Origin: a virus
Taxonomy: Duplodnaviria; Heunggongvirae; Uroviricota; Caudoviricetes
DNA length: 23,600 nt
Direction: 5' to 3' (one strand)
Virus record (IMG/VR): IMGVR_UViG_2548876944_000013
Span: 1 to 23,600 of that record
Of the stretch, positions 2,754 to 23,600 are shown in pieces. The notes under the pieces are model-generated. The model saw only the letters and a program-made list of their open reading frames with translations. It was not told where the DNA came from and did no database searches. Every line of letters starts with the position of its first letter. Position 1 is the first letter of the stretch. The translations under genes and the position numbers were made by a program.

Positions 2754-3224
2754 TTAGACTTTCTGGAAAACAGCTTGTTTAACCGGAGCACCATCTACTA
2801 CAAAGGTGAAAGAACGACCTACTACAGCATCTTCACCGCCCGTCATGGTAGTTTTAGACAGGAAGCCGTTATAAGCGATGTGCACACCAGATTTTTTCGT
2901 AGCGTCGATGTAGTAAGCAATTTTAAGCTGTACGCGCTTACCGTCTTCGGTTGCTTTAATCAGTTTTTCGTGTACTTCGTTACCCGGCATGTAGTTGATC
3001 GAAAGTTCGATATCCGGTACAGACATACGACCAACCAGCTTACGGTTATACGGACCACCGAAGTTAGGAACATCGATAGTAGAACGTTCTACACCAGTTT
3101 CCGGGAAAGCCGCACATTCTGGAATTTCCAGATAGCTTTCACTGTCAAGATCGGTGTTAGTTACTTCTTCATGCAGAAACAGACCAACGAGGCCACCAGA
3201 AAAAATATCAAATTTAGTAGTCAT
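2754..3224 (-). CDS. major tail tube protein (lambda gpV N-domain-like, 156 aa)
   Basis: Sequence pattern SYLE...SINYMPGNE...KRVQLKIAY resembles my recollection of the lambda gpV N-domain (SYLDDE...LAWMPGEQG...AYKIRF). Strongly biased 'high-expression' codon usage. Sits directly upstream of the chaperone pair. SD aggaaaaga. Confidence 0.6.
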   Translation of the reverse strand: MTTKFDIFSGGLVGLFLHEEVTNTDLDSESYLEIPECAAFPETGVERSTIDVPNFGGPYNRKLVGRMSVPDIELSINYMPGNEVHEKLIKATEDGKRVQLKIAYYIDATKKSGVHIAYNGFLSKTTMTGGEDAVVGRSFTFVVDGAPVKQAVFQKV

Positions 3225-3278: not shown

Positions 3279-3581
3279 TTAGCGGTTGCTCAAACGTCTA
3301 TAACGAAGATGAGCGATCCCCCTATTTGTGCTAACGGTAATTACCGCCCCTTGCGGTGCAATACAAGAATGAATCTGTCCCCAATCATGACCCTTATGGC
3401 TTCCAGAAACACACAAACCATGAATAAGCAATTCAGAGTCACCACCGCCACCACCGGAAGAATGAGCACAGAATGAAATAGTCCCGAAAGCGTCGGCTGT
3501 CCAACCGTTAGGAATATCAAACCATCCTTGATTTGCTTTACCCGCCCTATTCCCCAAAGCGCCATCTACCCAAAATGCCAT
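3279..3581 (-). CDS. paralog 3 of a tandem triad of ~100-aa Gly/Trp-rich proteins (FDIPNGW motif), function unknown
   Basis: MAFWVDG...WFDIPNGW... Shares the N-terminal M-x-x-W, FDIPNGW/Y, Gly-rich centre and C-terminal V(S/T)F..G...YFKF-type end with the two upstream ORFs. Its ATG overlaps the stop of the preceding paralog (TAATG). Confidence 0.55.
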   Translation of the reverse strand: MAFWVDGALGNRAGKANQGWFDIPNGWTADAFGTISFCAHSSGGGGGDSELLIHGLCVSGSHKGHDWGQIHSCIAPQGAVITVSTNRGIAHLRYRRLSNR

Positions 3582-3886
3582 TAGTGCATTCTCCTGAATT
3601 TAAAATAATGCAAACTACCTTTACCCAATGTAAAGCTAACGGTAGCACCAGCGCCAACTAAAGAACTAGCGCCCCAACTCCCAGCATCACCAGCATGATG
3701 ACCTGATTCAATCAATCCATTTACAGCCAATTCAGAATCAAGATCACCAGCACCGTTAATGGCTTCCATATGAGCAAAAACAATTCCGCATGAATCAGTA
3801 ACCCAGCCGTTGGGGATATCAAAATATCCACCATTAGCCCAAATACTAATAGCGTTTGACATTCTTTGATTTATCCATCCAGCCAT
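3581..3886 (-). CDS. paralog 2 of the tandem triad (101 aa), function unknown
   Basis: MAGWINQ...YFDIPNGW...VSFTLGKGSLHYFKF. Start lies 2 nt after the stop of paralog 1 (translational coupling). Confidence 0.55.
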   Translation of the reverse strand: MAGWINQRMSNAISIWANGGYFDIPNGWVTDSCGIVFAHMEAINGAGDLDSELAVNGLIESGHHAGDAGSWGASSLVGAGATVSFTLGKGSLHYFKFRRMH

Positions 3887-3888
3887 AA

Positions 3889-4185
3889 TTAAAACTCCAT
3901 GAATTTAAAATATTCAACACCACCTTCACCCCCTAAACCAAAGGAGACGGTGCAGCCAGCAGGAACAAACGAATTTATAGTAGATCCCCAATTGGTCCCA
4001 CCACGACGACGAGCAACGGTCAAACCATCTACGTTAATATGTGCATCAGACCACCCACCACCAGCATTATGACGCATTACAGCGACACCAGCACGAGCAG
4101 TACCATAGCCGTTAGGAATATCAAATACATGCCATTTTAAAGCATCGATTTTAGTATTAATTTCACTACTTACCCAATATCCCAT
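3889..4185 (-). CDS. paralog 1 of the tandem triad (98 aa), function unknown
   Basis: MGYWVSS...VFDIPNGY...VSFGLGGEGGVEYFKF. SD aaggatt upstream. Immediately downstream of the fibre gene. Confidence 0.55.
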   Translation of the reverse strand: MGYWVSSEINTKIDALKWHVFDIPNGYGTARAGVAVMRHNAGGGWSDAHINVDGLTVARRRGGTNWGSTINSFVPAGCTVSFGLGGEGGVEYFKFMEF

Positions 4186-4223
4186 ATAAGAATCCTTAGC
4201 GGAGATTTCTCCCCGCTTTCCAA

Positions 4224-7200
4224 TTACCCTAATTTAGCTTCAATTGCAGCAAGACGTTCACGAAGAAGTTTATTTTCTTCGCTCATTTCTTGGACCGCTT
4301 TAATTAAAAGCGCGTTCACTGCGGAGTTTGAAATTGTAAAAATTTCTTCTGGGTTATCAAAACCACCAATTTTTGCGGTTTTAACAGCTTCCGGTAATAC
4401 CTCTTGTAAATCCTGTGCGATAATACCAATCTCATGACCTATAACTTCTCGGTCATTAAGAGATTTAACTTTATCGTAGGTTTTAACTTTGAGTTTATTT
4501 ACCTTATCCACCGCATTTTCTTCGTAATCTTCAACATTAATTTTCAGACGACGATCGGAACGAATATAAACATCGTTAAAGTTTCCGTTACCAGTGGCAT
4601 GAAATTCTCCACTTGCATGGAATTGATAATCAGCACCCTGAACATGAAGAACCGCTGCCGCAGTATTATTACTATCACCGGGACAATGAACGTCCATAAC
4701 AGCGATGTAGTTACGCCCCCAATCAACCGCTTTCCAAATAGCATGAGCACTATCAACGCTTTGTTGACAGTCAACCAACAAACCAGCAGGTCGGTCTCTC
4801 CATGCAACATATGCACCACCAGAAACCTCACCACGGATAAGTCCTTGATCTGCGGCATAAGGAACACGCCCTTCCAGTTTAATCATCGCGCCCTGGAAGT
4901 GATGACTAACTGCACCCTCATGATTATTTCGTATATGTAAAATACCATCATCTGTAGCCCAGATAACAGCCTTTTCTGCCTCGCTATCATCTCTAAACCA
5001 GACGTGGCGAGCACCAGCAGAGTTTTTGATAGTAATCCCGGAAGGTCCATGCACAGTAAAAGCGCCAGCAACATCAAACATCAAACTGTTATCTGTCCTG
5101 CGTTCAGCATAGAAGTGATAACCTTTGGAATCGCCGACTTCCATTACTGCCGCGCGACCAACTTCTGAATTTCCCCAATTATTAATAGAGAATCGTTCAG
5201 AGCTATTATTCATCTGATTTAGGTATAATGTACCATCAGTGAATGTTTCGCCAAAGAAACGAGTTTTAACGCCGTTAGTACCCCCCACGCGTTCAAATTC
5301 AGCCAAGAAACCTTTGGAATCTCGCATACTCAAAACGTTATTGCGTCCTGTATTACTGTTACCCCAATGGATTAATTCAATATAGTCCATTGACTGACGA
5401 GACCCTGATCTAAACACCATATTATCTTCGATGCGGGTGCTACCATCAATTCCCAGATGTAAACAGCGTGCGGTAGCTGTGCCACCTAGATCCAATCCAC
5501 CTTCGGCAAAATCATAGCTGAATGGTCTACGGCTATTCCACCCACCGAAAGAATCTTTTAAATCGGTAGTAAGGATATGGAAGCTAGAACCATCATTTCT
5601 AAAAATTAAGCCATAGTTGCCACCTTTAACAGCCAAACGAGCATTTTCAGATAATGCAACTTCGCTATTCATTACAATTTTCTGGCCTTTACCGCCAGTA
5701 ATATGTAATTCACCGTTTTCGATCAAGTTTATAGAGTTTTGACCGTTATCGTTCCACCAAATAAAATCTTTGGTCGTCAAATCACCAAAACCAAACCAAC
5801 CATTACGAACATCTTGACCAGTGCGATAATCCATGAAATTAAAATGGCTTGCTTCGTTTGGTCCTCGACGAATATCAATACCAGCATTAGAACCGGAACC
5901 TAAGCCACCATCGATGGTCAATCTACGAATATGTAACCCGGTTGCAGCCGAAAGCAATAATTGTTGGTTTACATCGTCATATCCAGTAGCAAGACGATAA
6001 TTTTGATCATCAACAGTTTCATGCCAGATAGTGGCAGGAGCAGAACTACGGAAGCGACGCAACATCTTTTTGCTGTTAGTTTGTTGTTCGTTCAAATGCT
6101 CAATGTCATATTGGCCTTGATGGTTTCCAGCAAAGTTTAACGTCCCACGGTTGCTAAAGTTATTGAACGATGAAATGTTAAGAGCATCAAAAATTTCGTC
6201 TGCAACAGGTTTTTCACCACCCAGATATTCAGGAGTATCCAACAGGTTTAAAGAAACACCACCGGAAGAAACTTGATATTCTGCTAAAACAAATCCTGTA
6301 TGTGCACCGTAGTAAGCGTAAAGATCGTAATTGTCGCCATCGGTTGGAATAGCACAAAAATGTTGTTCATAATGCCAAATAGTATAATACGCATTGAATA
6401 CAACACCTTTCGGGCTATTGTTGCCGCATCGAATCACCAATTCGATAATATTGGCTTGTCCATTATGTCCTACGTTATAACCGTTACCACCAACCAAACG
6501 GATCTTAGCCGTGCGACCGTGTTGTTGTGGCATTGTCAAAGTGCCTAGTTTAAACCAACCACCCTCGATACCAAAATTAAGCGTCTTCTGGAACAGTCGG
6601 TCAATTTCTGCTTTCGAATATGCGCCAATTTCAGCCGGAGTAGGTTTATCGCCTTCATGATACATGCGGTGAGAATATGACAAATCACCTAATTCATCAT
6701 AGCCGTATGTTCTTACAGTAGCATGTGGATTAGACCCATAAGTGAACTCGAAGCCACGAGCATGATTAACACCAGATGGATGCGGAACATGCAAGATCAT
6801 TGCAATATGACCCGCCAGGTCATTCATGCGGAATGCACCAAAGTAATCAAGATTACGCGCATTTGGATCATCAAAATAGTTTGCGGTCTTAGACAGCAAA
6901 TAACCATCAGTATAAGTGTTTACGTGTTTTTTGATGTACTTGCCATCAGCAGATCCATCGGCTGCATCAATACGGCTTTCTAAACGTGCCAGTTCAGAAT
7001 CAGTGTAAGACTTGTTATTGTCAACTTTGCTATGAATTGCTGTATTTTTGGCTTCAACATCACGGGTTAATGCTGCGACGTTATCCGCTGCCTCTTGCTT
7101 ATTGGCTGCAATCACACCAGTAAGGTTATTGTAGGTGTCAGTTAACTGATTTTCCGCATAGACTTTATTTGCTGCGATAGTGCGGTCAGTTTCTGCCTTA

Positions 7201-7754
7201 ATCAAATCAACCTTGTCATTGATTGCTTTGTCATTGCTTGCGATGGTTGCATCGGTGCGGGATTTAATATCATCAACTTTTTTATTGATGCGGGTGTCCA
7301 GTTCCTGAGTTGCTACAGCAGCCGCATTTTTATTAGCGTTGATGGTATCCGACAATTCAGCTTTAACACCAGCAAGGTCGGAAGCAGCTTTATTTTTATT
7401 GGCCTCGATTGTCGCGTCGGTTTCGCGTTTAATTACATCAACTTTATTGTTAATTTCTGCGTGATTTGCTGCGATGGTTGCATCAGTAGTTTGTTTAATT
7501 TCATCTACTTTAGCGTGAATATTGCGGTCATTTACTGCAATTGTGCTATCTAGTTCTTGTTTGTTAGCATCAACTTTAGATTCTAGTGCCGCGTGAGTTT
7601 CAGGAGAAACAGAGATTTGAACTACTTCATGATCTCGGTCTTTGGTAAAAATAACATGGTCTTTAAGGTTGATTGCTACCTCACCGACCTGTAATTGTTC
7701 CGGCGTTGGTTTTTTGCCAGAAACATTAGTTCGTTTAAATTGGATTGATTGCAT
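4224..7754 (-). CDS. long fibre protein (1176 aa) with N-terminal coiled-coil repeats and C-terminal self-cleaving intramolecular chaperone domain (peptidase S74-like)
   Basis: N-terminus KRTNVSGKKPTPEQLQVGEVAINLKD is fibre-like. About five repeats of KVDxIKxxTDATIxAN follow. C-terminal ~110 aa begins SDRRLK (Ser codon at 4557-4559) and continues with the GHEIGIIAQDLQEVLPEAV pattern typical of the endosialidase/T5 L-shaped-fibre chaperone domain. SD gaggtg. Confidence 0.8.
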   Translation of the reverse strand: MQSIQFKRTNVSGKKPTPEQLQVGEVAINLKDHVIFTKDRDHEVVQISVSPETHAALESKVDANKQELDSTIAVNDRNIHAKVDEIKQTTDATIAANHAEINNKVDVIKRETDATIEANKNKAASDLAGVKAELSDTINANKNAAAVATQELDTRINKKVDDIKSRTDATIASNDKAINDKVDLIKAETDRTIAANKVYAENQLTDTYNNLTGVIAANKQEAADNVAALTRDVEAKNTAIHSKVDNNKSYTDSELARLESRIDAADGSADGKYIKKHVNTYTDGYLLSKTANYFDDPNARNLDYFGAFRMNDLAGHIAMILHVPHPSGVNHARGFEFTYGSNPHATVRTYGYDELGDLSYSHRMYHEGDKPTPAEIGAYSKAEIDRLFQKTLNFGIEGGWFKLGTLTMPQQHGRTAKIRLVGGNGYNVGHNGQANIIELVIRCGNNSPKGVVFNAYYTIWHYEQHFCAIPTDGDNYDLYAYYGAHTGFVLAEYQVSSGGVSLNLLDTPEYLGGEKPVADEIFDALNISSFNNFSNRGTLNFAGNHQGQYDIEHLNEQQTNSKKMLRRFRSSAPATIWHETVDDQNYRLATGYDDVNQQLLLSAATGLHIRRLTIDGGLGSGSNAGIDIRRGPNEASHFNFMDYRTGQDVRNGWFGFGDLTTKDFIWWNDNGQNSINLIENGELHITGGKGQKIVMNSEVALSENARLAVKGGNYGLIFRNDGSSFHILTTDLKDSFGGWNSRRPFSYDFAEGGLDLGGTATARCLHLGIDGSTRIEDNMVFRSGSRQSMDYIELIHWGNSNTGRNNVLSMRDSKGFLAEFERVGGTNGVKTRFFGETFTDGTLYLNQMNNSSERFSINNWGNSEVGRAAVMEVGDSKGYHFYAERRTDNSLMFDVAGAFTVHGPSGITIKNSAGARHVWFRDDSEAEKAVIWATDDGILHIRNNHEGAVSHHFQGAMIKLEGRVPYAADQGLIRGEVSGGAYVAWRDRPAGLLVDCQQSVDSAHAIWKAVDWGRNYIAVMDVHCPGDSNNTAAAVLHVQGADYQFHASGEFHATGNGNFNDVYIRSDRRLKINVEDYEENAVDKVNKLKVKTYDKVKSLNDREVIGHEIGIIAQDLQEVLPEAVKTAKIGGFDNPEEIFTISNSAVNALLIKAVQEMSEENKLLRERLAAIEAKLG

Positions 7755-7825: not shown

Positions 7826-8659
7826 TCAGTATTTCCCGAAATCGATCCGGTCATGGATAGAAACGGCTTCAATCTCGGCTGGTGTCGGTTTTTCTTCTGT
7901 GGAATACAATTTCACCCATCCAGAATTACCGTCTTTCTGGACTGTGCGAACTCGTAAACGTGGTGCACCAGAAGCGGTGCAAGTTAATTGCCATCCACCA
8001 TCTTCATTAGGTTGAACGTGAATTAGTGAAGTATCAGCACTAAATGGGTTAGATGCGCTCGATCCCTGATAGGTTACGAAACGGTTTCCGGCTAATGCTT
8101 CGCTATCAATCGGACCCGTGAATGGATTTACACCAGCACCCAAACCAAAATCACCCTGACGTAAGATCCGGCCTTCGGTAGCAATACCGCGATCTAGAAT
8201 CCCGCCATCAGGTTCTAATTTAAACTCGATTGTAGTAACTTTGTTATCACCGGATTTTGTTTTATGTGACGAGACATAAGCGTCAAAAATGACGTAGTAA
8301 CCTGTGTTAGCAGCACTGTAACCAGAGTTCACAACATAGAACATACGAAAGCGTAAAGGAGTTTTATCATTCACCGCTTTCATCAACATGTCTTGATGTT
8401 CGTCATCCAGAACACGGTTTACTACTAACGTAGTTGATTCAAGTTTACGATAGCCAGCAAGTTTACCCGTAGCGTCCTGATCATACTCTTCTAACGTCTG
8501 GATCTCTGTGGATTCGGTTATCGTCGGGAATGCTGCGATGTTCTCGATAGGACTAAATGCAGGATCGAAAAAGTCCGGCTGGTTATCCACCATAGTAGAC
8601 ACGGAGACTTCAACATGCGACCCCGTGAAAATGTCTAAGTTATCTTGTGTAATATTCAT
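7826..8659 (-). CDS. virion structural protein (277 aa), neck/collar or tail-associated; carries KPTPAEI motif shared with the fibre
   Basis: Beta-rich composition and position between neck-protein genes and the fibre gene. C-terminus EEKPTPAEIEAVS mirrors GDKPTPAEIGAYS inside the fibre. SD aagggg. Confidence 0.4.
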   Translation of the reverse strand: MNITQDNLDIFTGSHVEVSVSTMVDNQPDFFDPAFSPIENIAAFPTITESTEIQTLEEYDQDATGKLAGYRKLESTTLVVNRVLDDEHQDMLMKAVNDKTPLRFRMFYVVNSGYSAANTGYYVIFDAYVSSHKTKSGDNKVTTIEFKLEPDGGILDRGIATEGRILRQGDFGLGAGVNPFTGPIDSEALAGNRFVTYQGSSASNPFSADTSLIHVQPNEDGGWQLTCTASGAPRLRVRTVQKDGNSGWVKLYSTEEKPTPAEIEAVSIHDRIDFGKY

Positions 8660-9556: not shown

Positions 9557-11563
9557 TCAGTCAGCGGAGATGTGAAGAACTTTCAGCGCTTCCGGCTGGG
9601 TTACAACGTAATCCAGATCTACCCAGATACGCGGAACGATAGCAGACTGTGCGCGGTAGGTAGTGTCATCAATGTCAAGTTCCAGACCCCCCCATTCACC
9701 GATGGTAATAGCGTCGAACGATCCCAGAACGATGTGGTCTACCGGAATAACACCAGAAGTAACTACGTCGTAACCAGCCAGTTTACCGTTTTCGATGATA
9801 TAACCGGAAACACCGTTATCTTTCAGGGTAGATTCCAGTTCAGCAGCAGTTGCACCGCTCATTGCAAACTTGATCGCCTGAGCAGGAACGCCAGCGTCGG
9901 TCAGTTTAGCAATTTCTTTCAGGAAGTCTTTATAAGAGAAAGCAGCTTTCTTCTCTACGCGACCAGCATCTACCAGTTGTTTAATCACACCAGCCGGACC
10001 ACGAGCATTTTCTTTGTCGGACAGAATCAGTTGTTCCAGTTTGATGCGAACAGCCTGGTTAATGTGATCAGTGATCAGGGTAGCGATCCCAGGAACGGTC
10101 TTGAGGCTAGCCCTAGAAATTGGGTTGCCACCAGCAAAAGTTTTCGGAGCCATTTTCACGTTCGCAAATTCGGCTTTACCTTCCGGTGCAGCACCGTTTT
10201 CATCAACGAAGCCGAAAGATTCAACGCTAGAAGCGGTCATTTTCGGAATAGCGGTCGGCGAAGTCAGACCAGACAGGACTTTCACACCCAGACGACCCAG
10301 AACGGATTCCGGCATCAGCATCGCTACATAGGAATCATTCAGCAGTTTTTCGTCAGTTACAGCGGTCAGAGTAGCTTTGGTGTTACCATCAGCAGCAGCA
10401 CGCATAGCAGCAGTAGGAACGAATACGGAGCCACCGCGAGCAGCACGACCACGCTGCATAGTTGCAGTAGCAGCCATTGCAGAAAACTCGGCTTCGTTAG
10501 CACCCAGAGCTTCACCATCTACCAGAGAGCGAATTACGTTGTTCAGGTCAAAAGTTTTTTCCATTTTAGAGTCCTTAATTTGTTGTTCGTTATTACGTTG
10601 AGCATTGGTAATGTTATTTAGTGCCTTAGTGCGGAATGCTTCCGGCGTCATGTCTTTAATTGCCAATGCGCGTTCTAATTCTTCGTCGTTAATATTTAGT
10701 TCGCGTGCAATTTCGCGAATTTCTAATTCGTCTTCTTCGGAACGTTCAGCCACTTCCTCGGTTTTTTCTTCTTCAACCGGAGCGGCTTCACGTTCTTCTT
10801 TTACTTCTTCTGTTTCCCGAACAGTTGAACTATCATCATCAACACTTTCAGGATGTTCAGCGTCTTTTCCGTCTTCGAGATTTTCATCTTCTTTATTCTC
10901 TTCAACTTGGCGCTCTTGAGTTTCTTCAACTTCCGATTCTTTATTTTCTTCTACCGGAGTTTCTTCAACCTGAGCGGATTCTTGTTCTTCTTTGATTTCT
11001 TCAATTTGTTCTTTAGTCATATCGCGTTTAGCCTCCAAATTAACTGTGATAGTATTTAGAGAGCGATTTAAACCGACCGAATCGTCCGCCGGGACCGTAA
11101 CAAAACTTAATTCGAACGGAACAAACTTAGTAACAATCAATTGCCCTTTGGTGTAGTCGATGTGATATTCTTTAATGTCATAGCCGACAGAAATTTTTTC
11201 CATCGTACCTTCAATGACTTTATTACGAATATCATTAGCCAAAGTGCCATGCTTAGAGAATCTAACGGTCGCACGGCCTACTTTATCCGCATCGATTCGA
11301 GCGTTACAAACGACACCTAAATGATTATCGAAATTATGATTAAACAGCAACGGAGCGTTATTATTCAGACGAGACAGATCAACCGCTTCCGGTGTATGTA
11401 CCAGAATTTCATCTAATACCACCATTTCTTGATTTTGCTCATCCCAGAATTGGCGCTGATACGGCTGTTCACTGGAGAAAGCAATTTCAAATTCGTATTG
11501 ATCATTATGCCCTTCGTTAATAACTCCACCGTAACCGTTAAGTTCGCGGCGAAATTTAAGCAT
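9557..11563 (-). CDS. prohead protease - scaffold(delta)-like acidic linker - HK97-fold major capsid protein, fused in one ORF (668 aa)
   Basis: N-terminal ~170 aa resemble the HK97-type prohead protease (LLFNHNFDNHLGVV, ISVGY). Residues ~180-330 are Glu-rich and coiled-coil, like a scaffold/delta domain. The C-terminal ~330 aa are capsid-like with strong 'high-expression' codon bias. SD aaggtga. Confidence 0.75.
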   Translation of the reverse strand: MLKFRRELNGYGGVINEGHNDQYEFEIAFSSEQPYQRQFWDEQNQEMVVLDEILVHTPEAVDLSRLNNNAPLLFNHNFDNHLGVVCNARIDADKVGRATVRFSKHGTLANDIRNKVIEGTMEKISVGYDIKEYHIDYTKGQLIVTKFVPFELSFVTVPADDSVGLNRSLNTITVNLEAKRDMTKEQIEEIKEEQESAQVEETPVEENKESEVEETQERQVEENKEDENLEDGKDAEHPESVDDDSSTVRETEEVKEEREAAPVEEEKTEEVAERSEEDELEIREIARELNINDEELERALAIKDMTPEAFRTKALNNITNAQRNNEQQIKDSKMEKTFDLNNVIRSLVDGEALGANEAEFSAMAATATMQRGRAARGGSVFVPTAAMRAAADGNTKATLTAVTDEKLLNDSYVAMLMPESVLGRLGVKVLSGLTSPTAIPKMTASSVESFGFVDENGAAPEGKAEFANVKMAPKTFAGGNPISRASLKTVPGIATLITDHINQAVRIKLEQLILSDKENARGPAGVIKQLVDAGRVEKKAAFSYKDFLKEIAKLTDAGVPAQAIKFAMSGATAAELESTLKDNGVSGYIIENGKLAGYDVVTSGVIPVDHIVLGSFDAITIGEWGGLELDIDDTTYRAQSAIVPRIWVDLDYVVTQPEALKVLHISAD

Positions 11564-11608: not shown

Positions 11609-12073
11609 TTAGGGATCGGTTGGGGAATTTTTTTCTTCACCCTCACCATCAACGATAATATTTAGTGCGCTCTTTTCGGCTTGAATCTCTGAGAATACTT
11701 TTTCAGGATCATCACCACGTTCTAATATAACGGCAGTACGTGATTTAAGTCCTTTATCAATTAAAGCAATCTCGGCGTTTACGTCTTTAATTGGATCGAC
11801 GGATTCAAAACGCGGACGAATAATAGTAGTGTTGTCGATAATATGCGGAATTGCAGTAATACGAATCGGAACAATACCACGCGCGGAATAATGGCGTAGA
11901 TATGCTTCAAAAATTGGCAATACCACTGTTTCAATTAATTTGTTTTGCAGTGCTTTAACTCGTGTGCGTTGAGTTAATTCACCAAAACGCGCGGCTGAGT
12001 AGTTGATCTGGGAAGTATCACCAGTCAAGCCCTGTTTAAACACGCCTAAGCCCATTGATACGCTAGTAAACAT
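11609..12073 (-). CDS. portal protein, C-terminal portion (out of frame with the upstream portal ORF)
   Basis: Overlaps the 357-aa ORF by 28 nt in a different frame, and this frame is open far upstream of its ATG. No SD before the ATG at 12073. The two ORFs together span ~1.5 kb, the size of a lambda-gpB-type portal gene. Confidence 0.5.
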   Translation of the reverse strand: MFTSVSMGLGVFKQGLTGDTSQINYSAARFGELTQRTRVKALQNKLIETVVLPIFEAYLRHYSARGIVPIRITAIPHIIDNTTIIRPRFESVDPIKDVNAEIALIDKGLKSRTAVILERGDDPEKVFSEIQAEKSALNIIVDGEGEEKNSPTDP

Positions 12074-13119
12074 CGCATCATTGAAGCTGTTAAAGTCATC
12101 ACCGCTTTGGCGCTCTGAATTGCCTTGATCGTTGCCCCTTCCGGCAATTCCTGAATAGTACCCGGTGCAAAATCCTGTACTACTTCCGGCGCTTGATATT
12201 GGTCTTCATCTTCGCCAGTATCAAAATCGTCACCAGAATCTTTCGGACGTTCGATAAAGCCCATAGAGCTAGCTGCAATACGTTTCTGGATGATCGCAGT
12301 TTCGCGGAATGCGTCTTGATGTGCGATATCCTTGATCACTGGTAGGAAGTCAGTCACACCACGCAGAGATTCAGCCGTAAGTGGTTGATAATAATGGCAT
12401 ACTTGCGAAGCCTCGACACGATAGTTATCACCTGTGTAGGTCTGAGTCAGTAGATTGACTTTACGAAACCAGTATGCAACAGGGCGCATTGTGTTCACGT
12501 CATACTCCACACCTTGATATATCGCACGTTCTTTGCTTACTTCACGATTGAGCGACCAGTCGCACTTATCAGCAGACAGGATAGAAACATTTAACTCATT
12601 GTTTTCTTTGGTTAAAACGATGAAGCACTCACCACCCATAACGCGCTCACGTTCAGCCATTACCAGCAGTTCACGGAAGTTAAAGCGACCATTGCGGGAG
12701 AAGCGTTTAGCATTCTGCGCCCACTTCCAGAAAGCATTCTCAATCTGCTTATTCAGTGCGCTATCAAGTTTGCCATTTGATTTAACAACTGACGGCTTCG
12801 GATCTAGGCCAGTACCGACCACCATATCGGTGATGTATTGCGTGTAGCGACTGCCTACGGAAGTGTTTAAGGCCAGAGTACGACCCTGATCATAAAGGCG
12901 CTTACCGTTCGATTTGAGAGCCTTATTGAAGGTTCCGGTAATGGTGTCTTGTTGAAGCTGTCCATCAATGCGATCACCGACCAAGCCCAAAGAACGCTTA
13001 GACAAATCTTTCTGGAATTTTTCTACTTGTTTGTCGATAAAGATTTTTTGTTGTTGCTGGCGGTGATTAGTTTTAACTGGAGTTTCTACCGCCTTTTTGC
13101 GTCGAAAAAGATTAAACAT
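12046..13119 (-). CDS. portal protein, N-terminal portion (357 aa ORF)
   Basis: Position directly after the large terminase gene and an intervening small gene. SD aagggg. Called as portal mainly from position and the combined ~500-aa size of the two ORFs; no specific portal motif was identified. Confidence 0.55.
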   Translation of the reverse strand: MFNLFRRKKAVETPVKTNHRQQQQKIFIDKQVEKFQKDLSKRSLGLVGDRIDGQLQQDTITGTFNKALKSNGKRLYDQGRTLALNTSVGSRYTQYITDMVVGTGLDPKPSVVKSNGKLDSALNKQIENAFWKWAQNAKRFSRNGRFNFRELLVMAERERVMGGECFIVLTKENNELNVSILSADKCDWSLNREVSKERAIYQGVEYDVNTMRPVAYWFRKVNLLTQTYTGDNYRVEASQVCHYYQPLTAESLRGVTDFLPVIKDIAHQDAFRETAIIQKRIAASSMGFIERPKDSGDDFDTGEDEDQYQAPEVVQDFAPGTIQELPEGATIKAIQSAKAVMTLTASMMRCLLAYQWA

Positions 13120-23249: not shown

Positions 23250-23579
23250 TTATTTTGGGTTGACTACATTCGGGTTGCCAATTCGCCTGGCTAACTCTTG
23301 CTGAGTGATTTCTGACTGTAAAAAAGCATTTAACAGCAATACTTTAGAGGCGACGCTCAAAGGTACTTCAATAAAGTGATCATGACTATTTAATGGCGAA
23401 GGTAACGGGATAAGCTCGTTATCTTCAAAATAAAAATCAAATGCGGTCAGTAAAGCATCTTTTGCCGCTTCCATCGCTTCAGCGACAGTTTCGCCCTGCG
23501 TCAACGCTTCAGGGATATCCACAAAAGAAACCATATAACCGCCTTCCGGCGCGGGTGTAAGAGTGACGGGATAACGCAT
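23250..23579 (-). pseudogene. hicB: hicB (HicB antitoxin) 5' portion, 3'-truncated; novel C-terminus NPNVVNPK then stop
   Basis: MRYPVTLTPAPEGGYMVSFVDIPEALTQGETVAEAMEAAKDALLTAFDFYFEDNELIPLPSPLNSHDHFIEVPLSVASKVLLLNAFLQSEITQQELARRIG matches E. coli HicB as I recall it. The expected continuation through the DNA-binding helices is replaced by 8 unrelated codons. Confidence 0.6.
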
Positions 23580-23600
23580 AATTTCGACTGTCTCTCGCAT

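Follow-up and report, generated by a model that had tools for sequence, protein, structure and literature searches.

In a 23,600-nucleotide (nt) stretch of phage DNA (IMG/VR record IMGVR_UViG_2548876944_000013, referred to here in its full length as the window), we identified a set of three small genes, P1, P2, and P3, that lies on the minus strand directly behind a side tail-fiber gene and represents a three-gene family not previously described. Our best reading, which we put forward tentatively, is that the three products assemble 1:1:1 into a heterotrimeric knob that docks on the chaperone-cleaved end of the fiber and acts as an adhesin in the manner of gp38, the separate adhesin of T2/T6/S16-type fibers. 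A bolder form of this proposal is possible but more doubtful, namely, that the knob is an obligate heterotrimeric C1q-like cap that gives a homotrimeric fiber an asymmetric receptor surface, is portable between siphophages and T4-like myophages, and represents a second, independent solution to the use of a separate adhesin. A heterotrimeric knob would explain the fixed three-gene make-up of the set, its linkage to S74-type fibers irrespective of the fiber tip, its exchange with gp38, and its joint transfer with the chaperone end of the fiber gene.

P1 (3889..4185, minus strand, 98 amino acids (aa)), P2 (3581..3886, minus strand, 101 aa, the middle gene in every ordered set), and P3 (3279..3581, minus strand, 100 aa) would be the type-1, type-2, and type-3 subunits. 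An earlier note, made from the DNA letters alone, had described these three reading frames as translationally coupled; we recovered all three on the minus strand with the same lengths and exact coordinates, and the coupling was borne out by the 2-nt gap between the P1 stop codon and the P2 ATG, by the TAATG overlap of P2 and P3, and by a Shine-Dalgarno sequence before every gene (AAGGA, GGAG, AGGAG). The common architecture that had been claimed, with an N-terminal M-x-x-W, an FDIPNG motif, and a glycine-rich composition, was likewise found: 19 positions are invariant in the alignment of the three proteins (M1, W4, F21-D-I-P-N-G26, G33, and 11 more), and all three have a glycine content of 16-17% and four tryptophans apiece. 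The claim of a C-terminal YFKF-like strand held for P1 (...EYFKFMEF) and P2 but failed for P3, which has HLRY instead and ends in ...LRYRRLSNR. In BLASTP comparisons, P1 and P2 share 43% identity (E 2e-12), P2 and P3 36% (E 9e-15), and P1 and P3 24% (E 6e-9). Such similarity is far above chance, and the three are true paralogs. The P2 orthologs of Salmonella carry an additional N-terminal extension of 5-30 aa (...RIPAAGW).

The ratio of nonsynonymous to synonymous substitution rates (dN/dS) among orthologs, calculated for 14 pairs of loci, was 0.04-0.36 for P1-P3. Where divergence was measurable, it was 0.07-0.36 for P2 and 0.07-0.30 for P3, with a value of 0 for each in one near-identical pair. 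This purifying selection indicates that P1-P3 are real functional genes rather than chance reading frames. The synonymous divergence between the window set and that of another locus (L013) was 0.30 for P3, 0.57 for P1, and 1.3 for P2, an approximately four-fold spread between neighboring paralogs. These uneven values point to recombination breakpoints within the set, the one-of-each composition of which was kept nonetheless.

The gene directly upstream of P1 encodes a side tail fiber of 1176 aa (4224..7754, minus strand) that matches PHROG 1699 ("long tail fiber distal subunit"; a strong match, E 1e-137) and the Pfam families Gp34_trimer (E 2e-15) and, at aa 1066-1125, Peptidase_S74 (PF13884, E 5e-15). 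The latter match agrees with the description of this protein, in the earlier note, as a fiber with its own chaperone domain. The predicted self-cleavage site, DVYIR^SD, is located at fiber aa 1061-1067 (4554..4574, minus strand) and reads ...NDVYIR^SDRRLKI in full; the intramolecular chaperone domain behind it (aa 1066-1176; 4227..4559, minus strand) is predicted to be released after trimerization, which would leave DVYIR as the new C-terminal docking platform of the fiber. Among sequences in the PDB, the last 400 aa of the fiber best match gp37 of phage S16 (6F45_A) over the junction and the chaperone domain, and the junction aligns with that of S16 gp37, DLNVS^SDRRIKK. Judged by its C-terminal S74 domain and Ser-Asp junction, the partner of P1-P3 is most likely a self-cleaving S74 fiber.

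The composition of the set was surveyed by scanning all six frames with profile hidden Markov models (HMMs) at 29 loci from prophages of E. coli and Salmonella, three Krischvirus phages (T4-like), phage KFS-EC, and contigs from IMG/VR and metagenomes. Of the 29 loci, 24 hold three copies and no more, arranged type 1-type 2-type 3. Two more loci are cut by a contig end, with a content consistent with the ordered set, so that the order is fixed in 26 of 29, and copy number varies only through decay. Each family member from the database searches has one type against which its score is far above those against the other two, apart from the most divergent relatives, which are close between types 2 and 3. 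A divergent metagenomic lineage with only ~30-40% identity to the window proteins retains all three types, in order. Wherever upstream sequence was present, the preceding gene encodes a fiber that ends in an S74 chaperone domain, with a junction of the [YF][IL]R^SD class (DVYIR^SD, DIYIR^SD, or NY[YF]LR^SD).

The remaining three loci are degenerate, and all three are products of decay. In phage KFS-EC (L002, NC_055757, 7842-8316), a P1(1-89)::P3(47-...) deletion chimera, frameshifted by an extra G, is the single gene after gp37 and is annotated as "hypothetical"; its breakpoints fall in the GGTGGTG glycine-codon repeats of P1 and P3. Glycine codon runs within the set act as hot spots for deletion. 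The second degenerate locus is an IMG/VR prophage with a truncated P2, and the third is the prophage LS992166, in which only a 70-aa P3 stub is left. The suggestion that triplication with divergence marks a diversifying module for host range or immunity evasion was not upheld, as the types are ancient, the order is fixed in 26 of 29 loci, selection is purifying, and changes in copy number reflect decay.

These data also bear on the strongest of the rival explanations, in which P1-P3 are three separate tip binders, each paralog acting alone, whether as a homotrimer that forms a knob or as a lectin-like monomer, so that the fiber would have mixed tips or three sugar-binding sites. Such binders should vary in number and order, whereas one of each is strictly kept across E. 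coli, Salmonella, Krischvirus, and the distant metagenomic lineage, the deviations being decay; moreover, dN/dS is low overall and gives no hint of diversifying selection. This combination of strict composition and purifying selection is the strongest argument against separate binders, which we regard as unlikely, and three obligate, non-redundant subunits fit it better than alternative adhesins do.

Another line of evidence for a heterotrimeric, gp38-like knob is the genomic slot that the set occupies. The Krischvirus phages G37-3, G2248, and UPWr_E1 carry the set between gp37 and the holin gene, where other Krischvirus phages encode the gp38 adhesin (PMC12032242); the set therefore takes the gp38 slot. 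No gp38 homolog was found in G37-3, for which 99% of the genome was searched. The window set and the last ~77 nt of the fiber gene are 97% identical in DNA sequence to G37-3, and no close phage relative was found for the remainder of the window. The set and the chaperone end have thus been transferred jointly, as a cassette, between a temperate siphophage and lytic myophages. A replacement of the set by gp38 was found in LS992166 (L003, NZ_LS992166, 3776-4831), a siphophage-type prophage whose upstream S74 fiber has a mature tip region closely matching that of the window fiber. In this prophage, a true gp38 of 259 aa (PF05268/PF21721), 84-89% identical to the gp38 proteins of T6 and phage M1, stands in place of P1, P2, and the first part of P3, and is followed by the 70-aa C-terminal stub of P3. 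The combination of gp38 and stub indicates that a gp38 cassette overwrote the three-gene set; to judge by these sequences, the set and a genuine gp38 can stand in for each other in a sister prophage. A third state of the slot, with no gene behind the fiber, was seen in a sister prophage with a different fiber tip. The earlier view of P1-P3 as accessory adhesins or fiber-tip binders, rather than neck or tail proteins, was thus supported as to the link to the fiber, which is indicated by the S74 linkage, the gp38 slot, the exchange with gp38, and the knob-like predicted fold, but not as to a diversified set.

Further evidence comes from structure prediction. The AlphaFold2 models of P1 and P3 (predicted local distance difference test (pLDDT) scores of 83 and 81) have the same topology, in which an N-terminal helix of low confidence (residues ~3-14) precedes a beta sandwich of eight strands. 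Foldseek, which the earlier note had proposed as a check, was run on P1 and P3 and returned a jelly roll like those of fiber knobs and of C1q/TNF domains. The top PDB matches of P3 were cerebellin-1, C1QL2, collagen X NC1, C1q-C, and lymphotoxin-alpha, with modest support (E ~3e-3, template modeling (TM) scores of 0.4-0.55). Among predicted viral structures, the best matches of P1 include annotated tail fibers of Edwardsiella phages MSW-3 and eiAU, Achromobacter phage Motura, and Acinetobacter phage Acj61, as well as viral C1q-domain proteins. The predicted folds of P1 and P3 are thus of the C1q/TNF jelly-roll type, and the models suggest a fiber-end knob or lectin-like module with the jelly roll of C1q/TNF or carbohydrate-binding modules. 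No match to the Pfam signatures of C1q (PF00386) or TNF (PF00229) was found in P1-P3, and the matches from a profile search of the PDB were designed "Pizza" propeller repeats, picked up through a PNGxxxDSAG motif and spurious. Trimerization is obligate for C1q/TNF domains, and in some cases (C1q A/B/C, lymphotoxin a1b2) tandem paralogs make up a heterotrimer. The matches of P1 and P3 to such obligately trimeric domains, heterotrimer-formers included (C1q A/C, lymphotoxin), are what suggests a heterotrimer. Read from the sequences, the N-terminal helix is amphipathic, with hydrophobic residues at positions 4, 5, 9, 13, and 16 in P1-P3; all three types share an invariant W4, with I, V, or L as the next residue. 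The low confidence of this helix in both models is what would be expected of a segment that needs a partner.

In the mechanism that we propose, P1-P3 would be three non-redundant subunits, each composed of a C1q/TNF-like jelly roll of ~85 residues and a short amphipathic, tryptophan-bearing N-terminal helix. The fiber would first trimerize, aided by its own C-terminal S74 chaperone domain, which would then cut itself off at DVYIR^SD and depart, exposing a flat three-fold tip. One P1, one P2, and one P3 would form a heterotrimeric knob, in the way that the tandem A, B, and C chains of C1q assemble, and the knob would dock on the tip through the N-terminal tryptophans and helix elements. Once in place, it would serve as the distal adhesin, or as a modifier of receptor binding, and replace the monomeric gp38 of T2/T6/S16-type fibers. 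The chaperone end and the set would travel between phages as a single cassette. Heterotrimer formation, docking at DVYIR, presence in the virion, and receptor binding of P1-P3 are inferred. In phage S16, trimerized gp37 is described as removing its own last 113 residues, thereby exposing the gp38 docking surface, and the conserved N-terminal tryptophans of gp38 as fitting, prong-like, into pockets at the tip of gp37 (PMC7917993). In gp38-bearing phages with the junction DVYIR^SDGRLKI, this sequence is both the cleavage and the gp38-docking site, and the exchangeable module begins there (PMC7917993); the DVYIR strands are predicted to build a flat tip of triangular outline that has indentations for the conserved tryptophans of gp38 (PMC7917993).

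Several observations weigh against a heterotrimeric, gp38-like knob. Jelly rolls are common, and in the structural comparisons the scores of monomeric carbohydrate-binding modules equal those of C1q domains. A tip with three-fold symmetry does not need three different subunits. When the family profile was compared with gp38 using hhalign, the probability was 0.07% for a single gp38 and 0.7% for a profile of 25 gp38 sequences; the sole local match, to the third tryptophan motif, was not significant, and this motif is too short to argue for common descent. The set occurs with two unrelated fiber tip domains, which rules out that it co-varies with one particular tip. Furthermore, the KFS-EC-type tip also exists without the set (prophage AP027404) or with a wrecked set (KFS-EC itself, a viable phage), which indicates that the set is dispensable, and thus accessory, for at least that type of fiber. 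Finally, we found in the literature no virion proteomics on P1-P3, nor any proteomic or genetic work on the four phage isolates in which the family occurs.

The position of the set also suits another role, that of non-virion assembly factors that assist folding, cleavage, or release of the chaperone domain or shield the tip during assembly, as T4 gp38/gp57A or Tfa do, and that are absent from the finished particle. P1-P3 lie where fiber-assembly genes lie, they were transferred together with the 3' end of the chaperone domain, and the protein encoded in the gp38 slot of T4 is itself a chaperone. However, the window fiber already has its own S74 chaperone, sister prophages have S74 fibers without any downstream gene, and no tail-fiber-assembly family was matched in Pfam or NCBIfam, the only PHROG match being a marginal one to a "tail protein". 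A C1q/TNF-like jelly roll is, moreover, typical of surface or ligand binding and is not a known fold of fiber chaperones. We therefore consider assembly factors quite improbable. It is very improbable that P1-P3 are passengers unrelated to the fiber (superinfection exclusion, anti-defense, or host manipulation genes) that hitch-hike with a recombination-prone fiber end, for although fiber-adjacent slots often house genes such as cor or llp and the viable phage KFS-EC lost part of the set, the sequences, read by eye, have no obvious signal peptide, lipobox, or membrane segment, a defense role is unsupported as PADLOC gave no match, the genes are translationally coupled inside a late/tail operon in a temperate siphophage as well as in lytic T4-like phages, such a function would rarely call for three conserved paralogs, and the predicted fold matches fiber knobs.

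Compared with known systems, the proposed heterotrimeric knob is functionally and positionally closest to the gp38 module, structurally closest to C1q/TNF-like fiber knobs, and organizationally closest to the tail of the virophage DSLV2. Like the set, gp38 (T2/T6/S16-type; PF05268/PF21721) is encoded directly after a gp37-type fiber with a cleavable, self-processing S74 domain at an ...IR^SD-type junction, occupies the slot between gp37 and holin in Krischvirus, has N-terminal tryptophan that is conserved, and moves as a cassette with the chaperone end. However, gp38 is one 260-aa monomer with three tryptophan prongs and a polyglycine sandwich bearing hypervariable loops, whereas the set consists of three ~100-aa proteins, each with one invariant N-terminal tryptophan and a predicted jelly roll. 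The P1-P3 alignments contain only short glycine-rich turns, with no repeated pattern of glycine-rich motifs and hypervariable segments (GRM/HVS) as in gp38. The hhalign result led us to reject homology to gp38, its N-terminal attachment domain included; a resemblance noticed by eye between INVDGLTVARRRGG and LNIHGVTMYGRGG did not emerge from the profile comparison and was treated as chance.

In terms of predicted structure, the C1q/TNF heads (C1q A/B/C, the C1q-like knobs of phage fibers, and BclA) appear closest to P1-P3, which differ from them in being smaller (eight strands in ~80 residues) and free-standing, with no collagen or fiber stalk. T5 pb1, which forms the L-shaped fiber, and other S74 fibers without an accessory protein have a self-cleaving chaperone of the same type as that of the window fiber, and the tail modules have a similar order, with a tube protein, the L-shaped fiber, the p132 collar protein, chaperones, and the tape measure in T5 and a tube protein, the fiber, a small tube-like protein, chaperones, and the tape measure in the window. 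T5 is not known to have genes between the fiber gene and the next tail gene. In DSLV2, three consecutive tail-protein genes are reported to form a heterotrimer (PMC12724248). As with the set, three adjacent, conserved, related genes are proposed to build one heterotrimeric receptor-binding structure (PMC12724248), but the gp37-like chains of DSLV2 form the fiber itself rather than small knobs added to a homotrimeric fiber, and the families are unrelated. As P1-P3 fit neither gp38 nor Pfam C1q/TNF in sequence and architecture, we file the set under neither and regard it as a separately encoded fiber-tip module, one that differs in fold and is made up of three subunits.

The family is rare and essentially unannotated. 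P1-P3 have no match in Pfam (E<=0.1), NCBIfam, or PADLOC, and the sole PHROG match is that of P1 to phrog_9116, "tail protein", which is marginal (E 0.008 over 43 residues). This agrees with the earlier note, which had not recognized the family, and these searches gave no homology to a known neck or adaptor family, the finding that the note had named as fatal to its proposal of fiber-tip binders. We found no description of the family in the literature. A profile search of 5.8 billion proteins yielded 35 clusters, all "hypothetical" and all from E. coli, Shigella, or Salmonella, and a HMMER scan of 1.84 billion representatives yielded only ~15 true relatives of 97-129 aa. The family is present in 4 of 50,697 phage records and in 24 of 5,426 complete E. 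coli genomes (~0.4%). Several other candidates were rejected: large proteins from the deep search (a 2552-aa ankyrin-repeat protein and an 1118-aa repeat adhesin) were artefacts of summed repeats, a match in a Bryobacteraceae metagenome-assembled genome from the scan of genome contigs covered only 20 residues and was spurious, and two of the six metagenome loci (L035 and L036) were short-motif noise. An HMM search at maximum sensitivity found no match to the set in the fiber or the rest of the window, ruling out that the set was derived from the tip domain of the fiber itself.

From a practical perspective, the host range of T-even-like phages is now predicted and engineered via gp38 or the gp37 tip. 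Receptor prediction fails for the few Krischvirus phages, and for the ~0.4% of complete E. coli genomes (through a prophage), that have an unannotated set at this place instead. If P1-P3 do form a detachable heterotrimeric knob on a generic DVYIR stub, they would offer phage engineering a compact, swappable specificity module of ~900 bp. They would, moreover, count among the rare heterotrimeric C1q-like heads of viruses and clearly illustrate the movement of a receptor cassette between siphophage prophages and lytic myophages.

Between the fiber stop codon and the ribosome-binding site of P1 lies a GC-rich RNA hairpin with an 8-bp stem (4198..4217, minus strand; -15.1 kcal/mol, z -2.5). In a comparison of the window with the aligned regions of L001, L015, L017, L019, L022, L023, and L026, the hairpin was kept in the loci of E. 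coli, Salmonella, and Krischvirus, where changes in the stem preserve pairing, and the distant metagenomic locus L026 had a different GC hairpin at the equivalent site. In G2248, the hairpin is annotated as a putative terminator; with no U-tract after the stem, it is not a classic terminator. One could speculate that the hairpin reduces expression of the set relative to the fiber, which would fit a 3:1:1:1 stoichiometry.

The window is part of an E. coli prophage of ~35 kb that is 99.9% identical to a prophage of strain PK8568, adjoins hicAB/yncJ, and encodes a terminase and a portal of the lambda type, a putative fusion of protease and capsid, and a tail tip protein resembling J. The fiber is therefore an accessory side fiber, additional to the central tip. 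The tail genes follow the order tube protein (277 aa), fiber, P1-P3, tube-like protein (156 aa), two chaperone-like genes, and tape measure. The two tube-like genes that flank the fiber and the set (7826-8659 for the 277-aa and 2754-3224 for the 156-aa protein, both on the minus strand) belong to PHROG 158. The 156-aa protein was considered as a counterpart of T5 p132, but sequence comparison gave no backing for this identity, with no match to any solved structure, T5 p132 included.

Further along the window, the portal gene (11609-13119) is split at about 12108 by a 1-nt deletion into open reading frames of 357 and 154 aa; it is intact in the PK8568 prophage (503 aa), and the window copy may reflect a decaying prophage or a sequencing error. 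The head protein (9557-11563, minus strand, 668 aa) has an acidic, Glu-rich linker, and the corresponding head gene of the Salmonella sister prophages (684-690 aa) fuses Peptidase_S78 and Phage_capsid in one reading frame. At the end of the window lies a hicB antitoxin gene (23250-23600, minus strand), which in PK8568 (L024, 28269-28777) is annotated as partial beside a frameshifted hicA-like mRNA interferase gene; the prophage thus adjoins a decayed toxin-antitoxin pair near yncJ. The neighborhood of the fiber is a hot spot for mobile elements: some sister prophages, such as L005 (NZ_CP042903, 8250-9494), carry a GIY-YIG nuclease gene between the tube and fiber genes, others have IS4, IS3, or IS5 insertion sequences around the fiber, and the PK8568 prophage has a NUMOD3 gene in its tail module.

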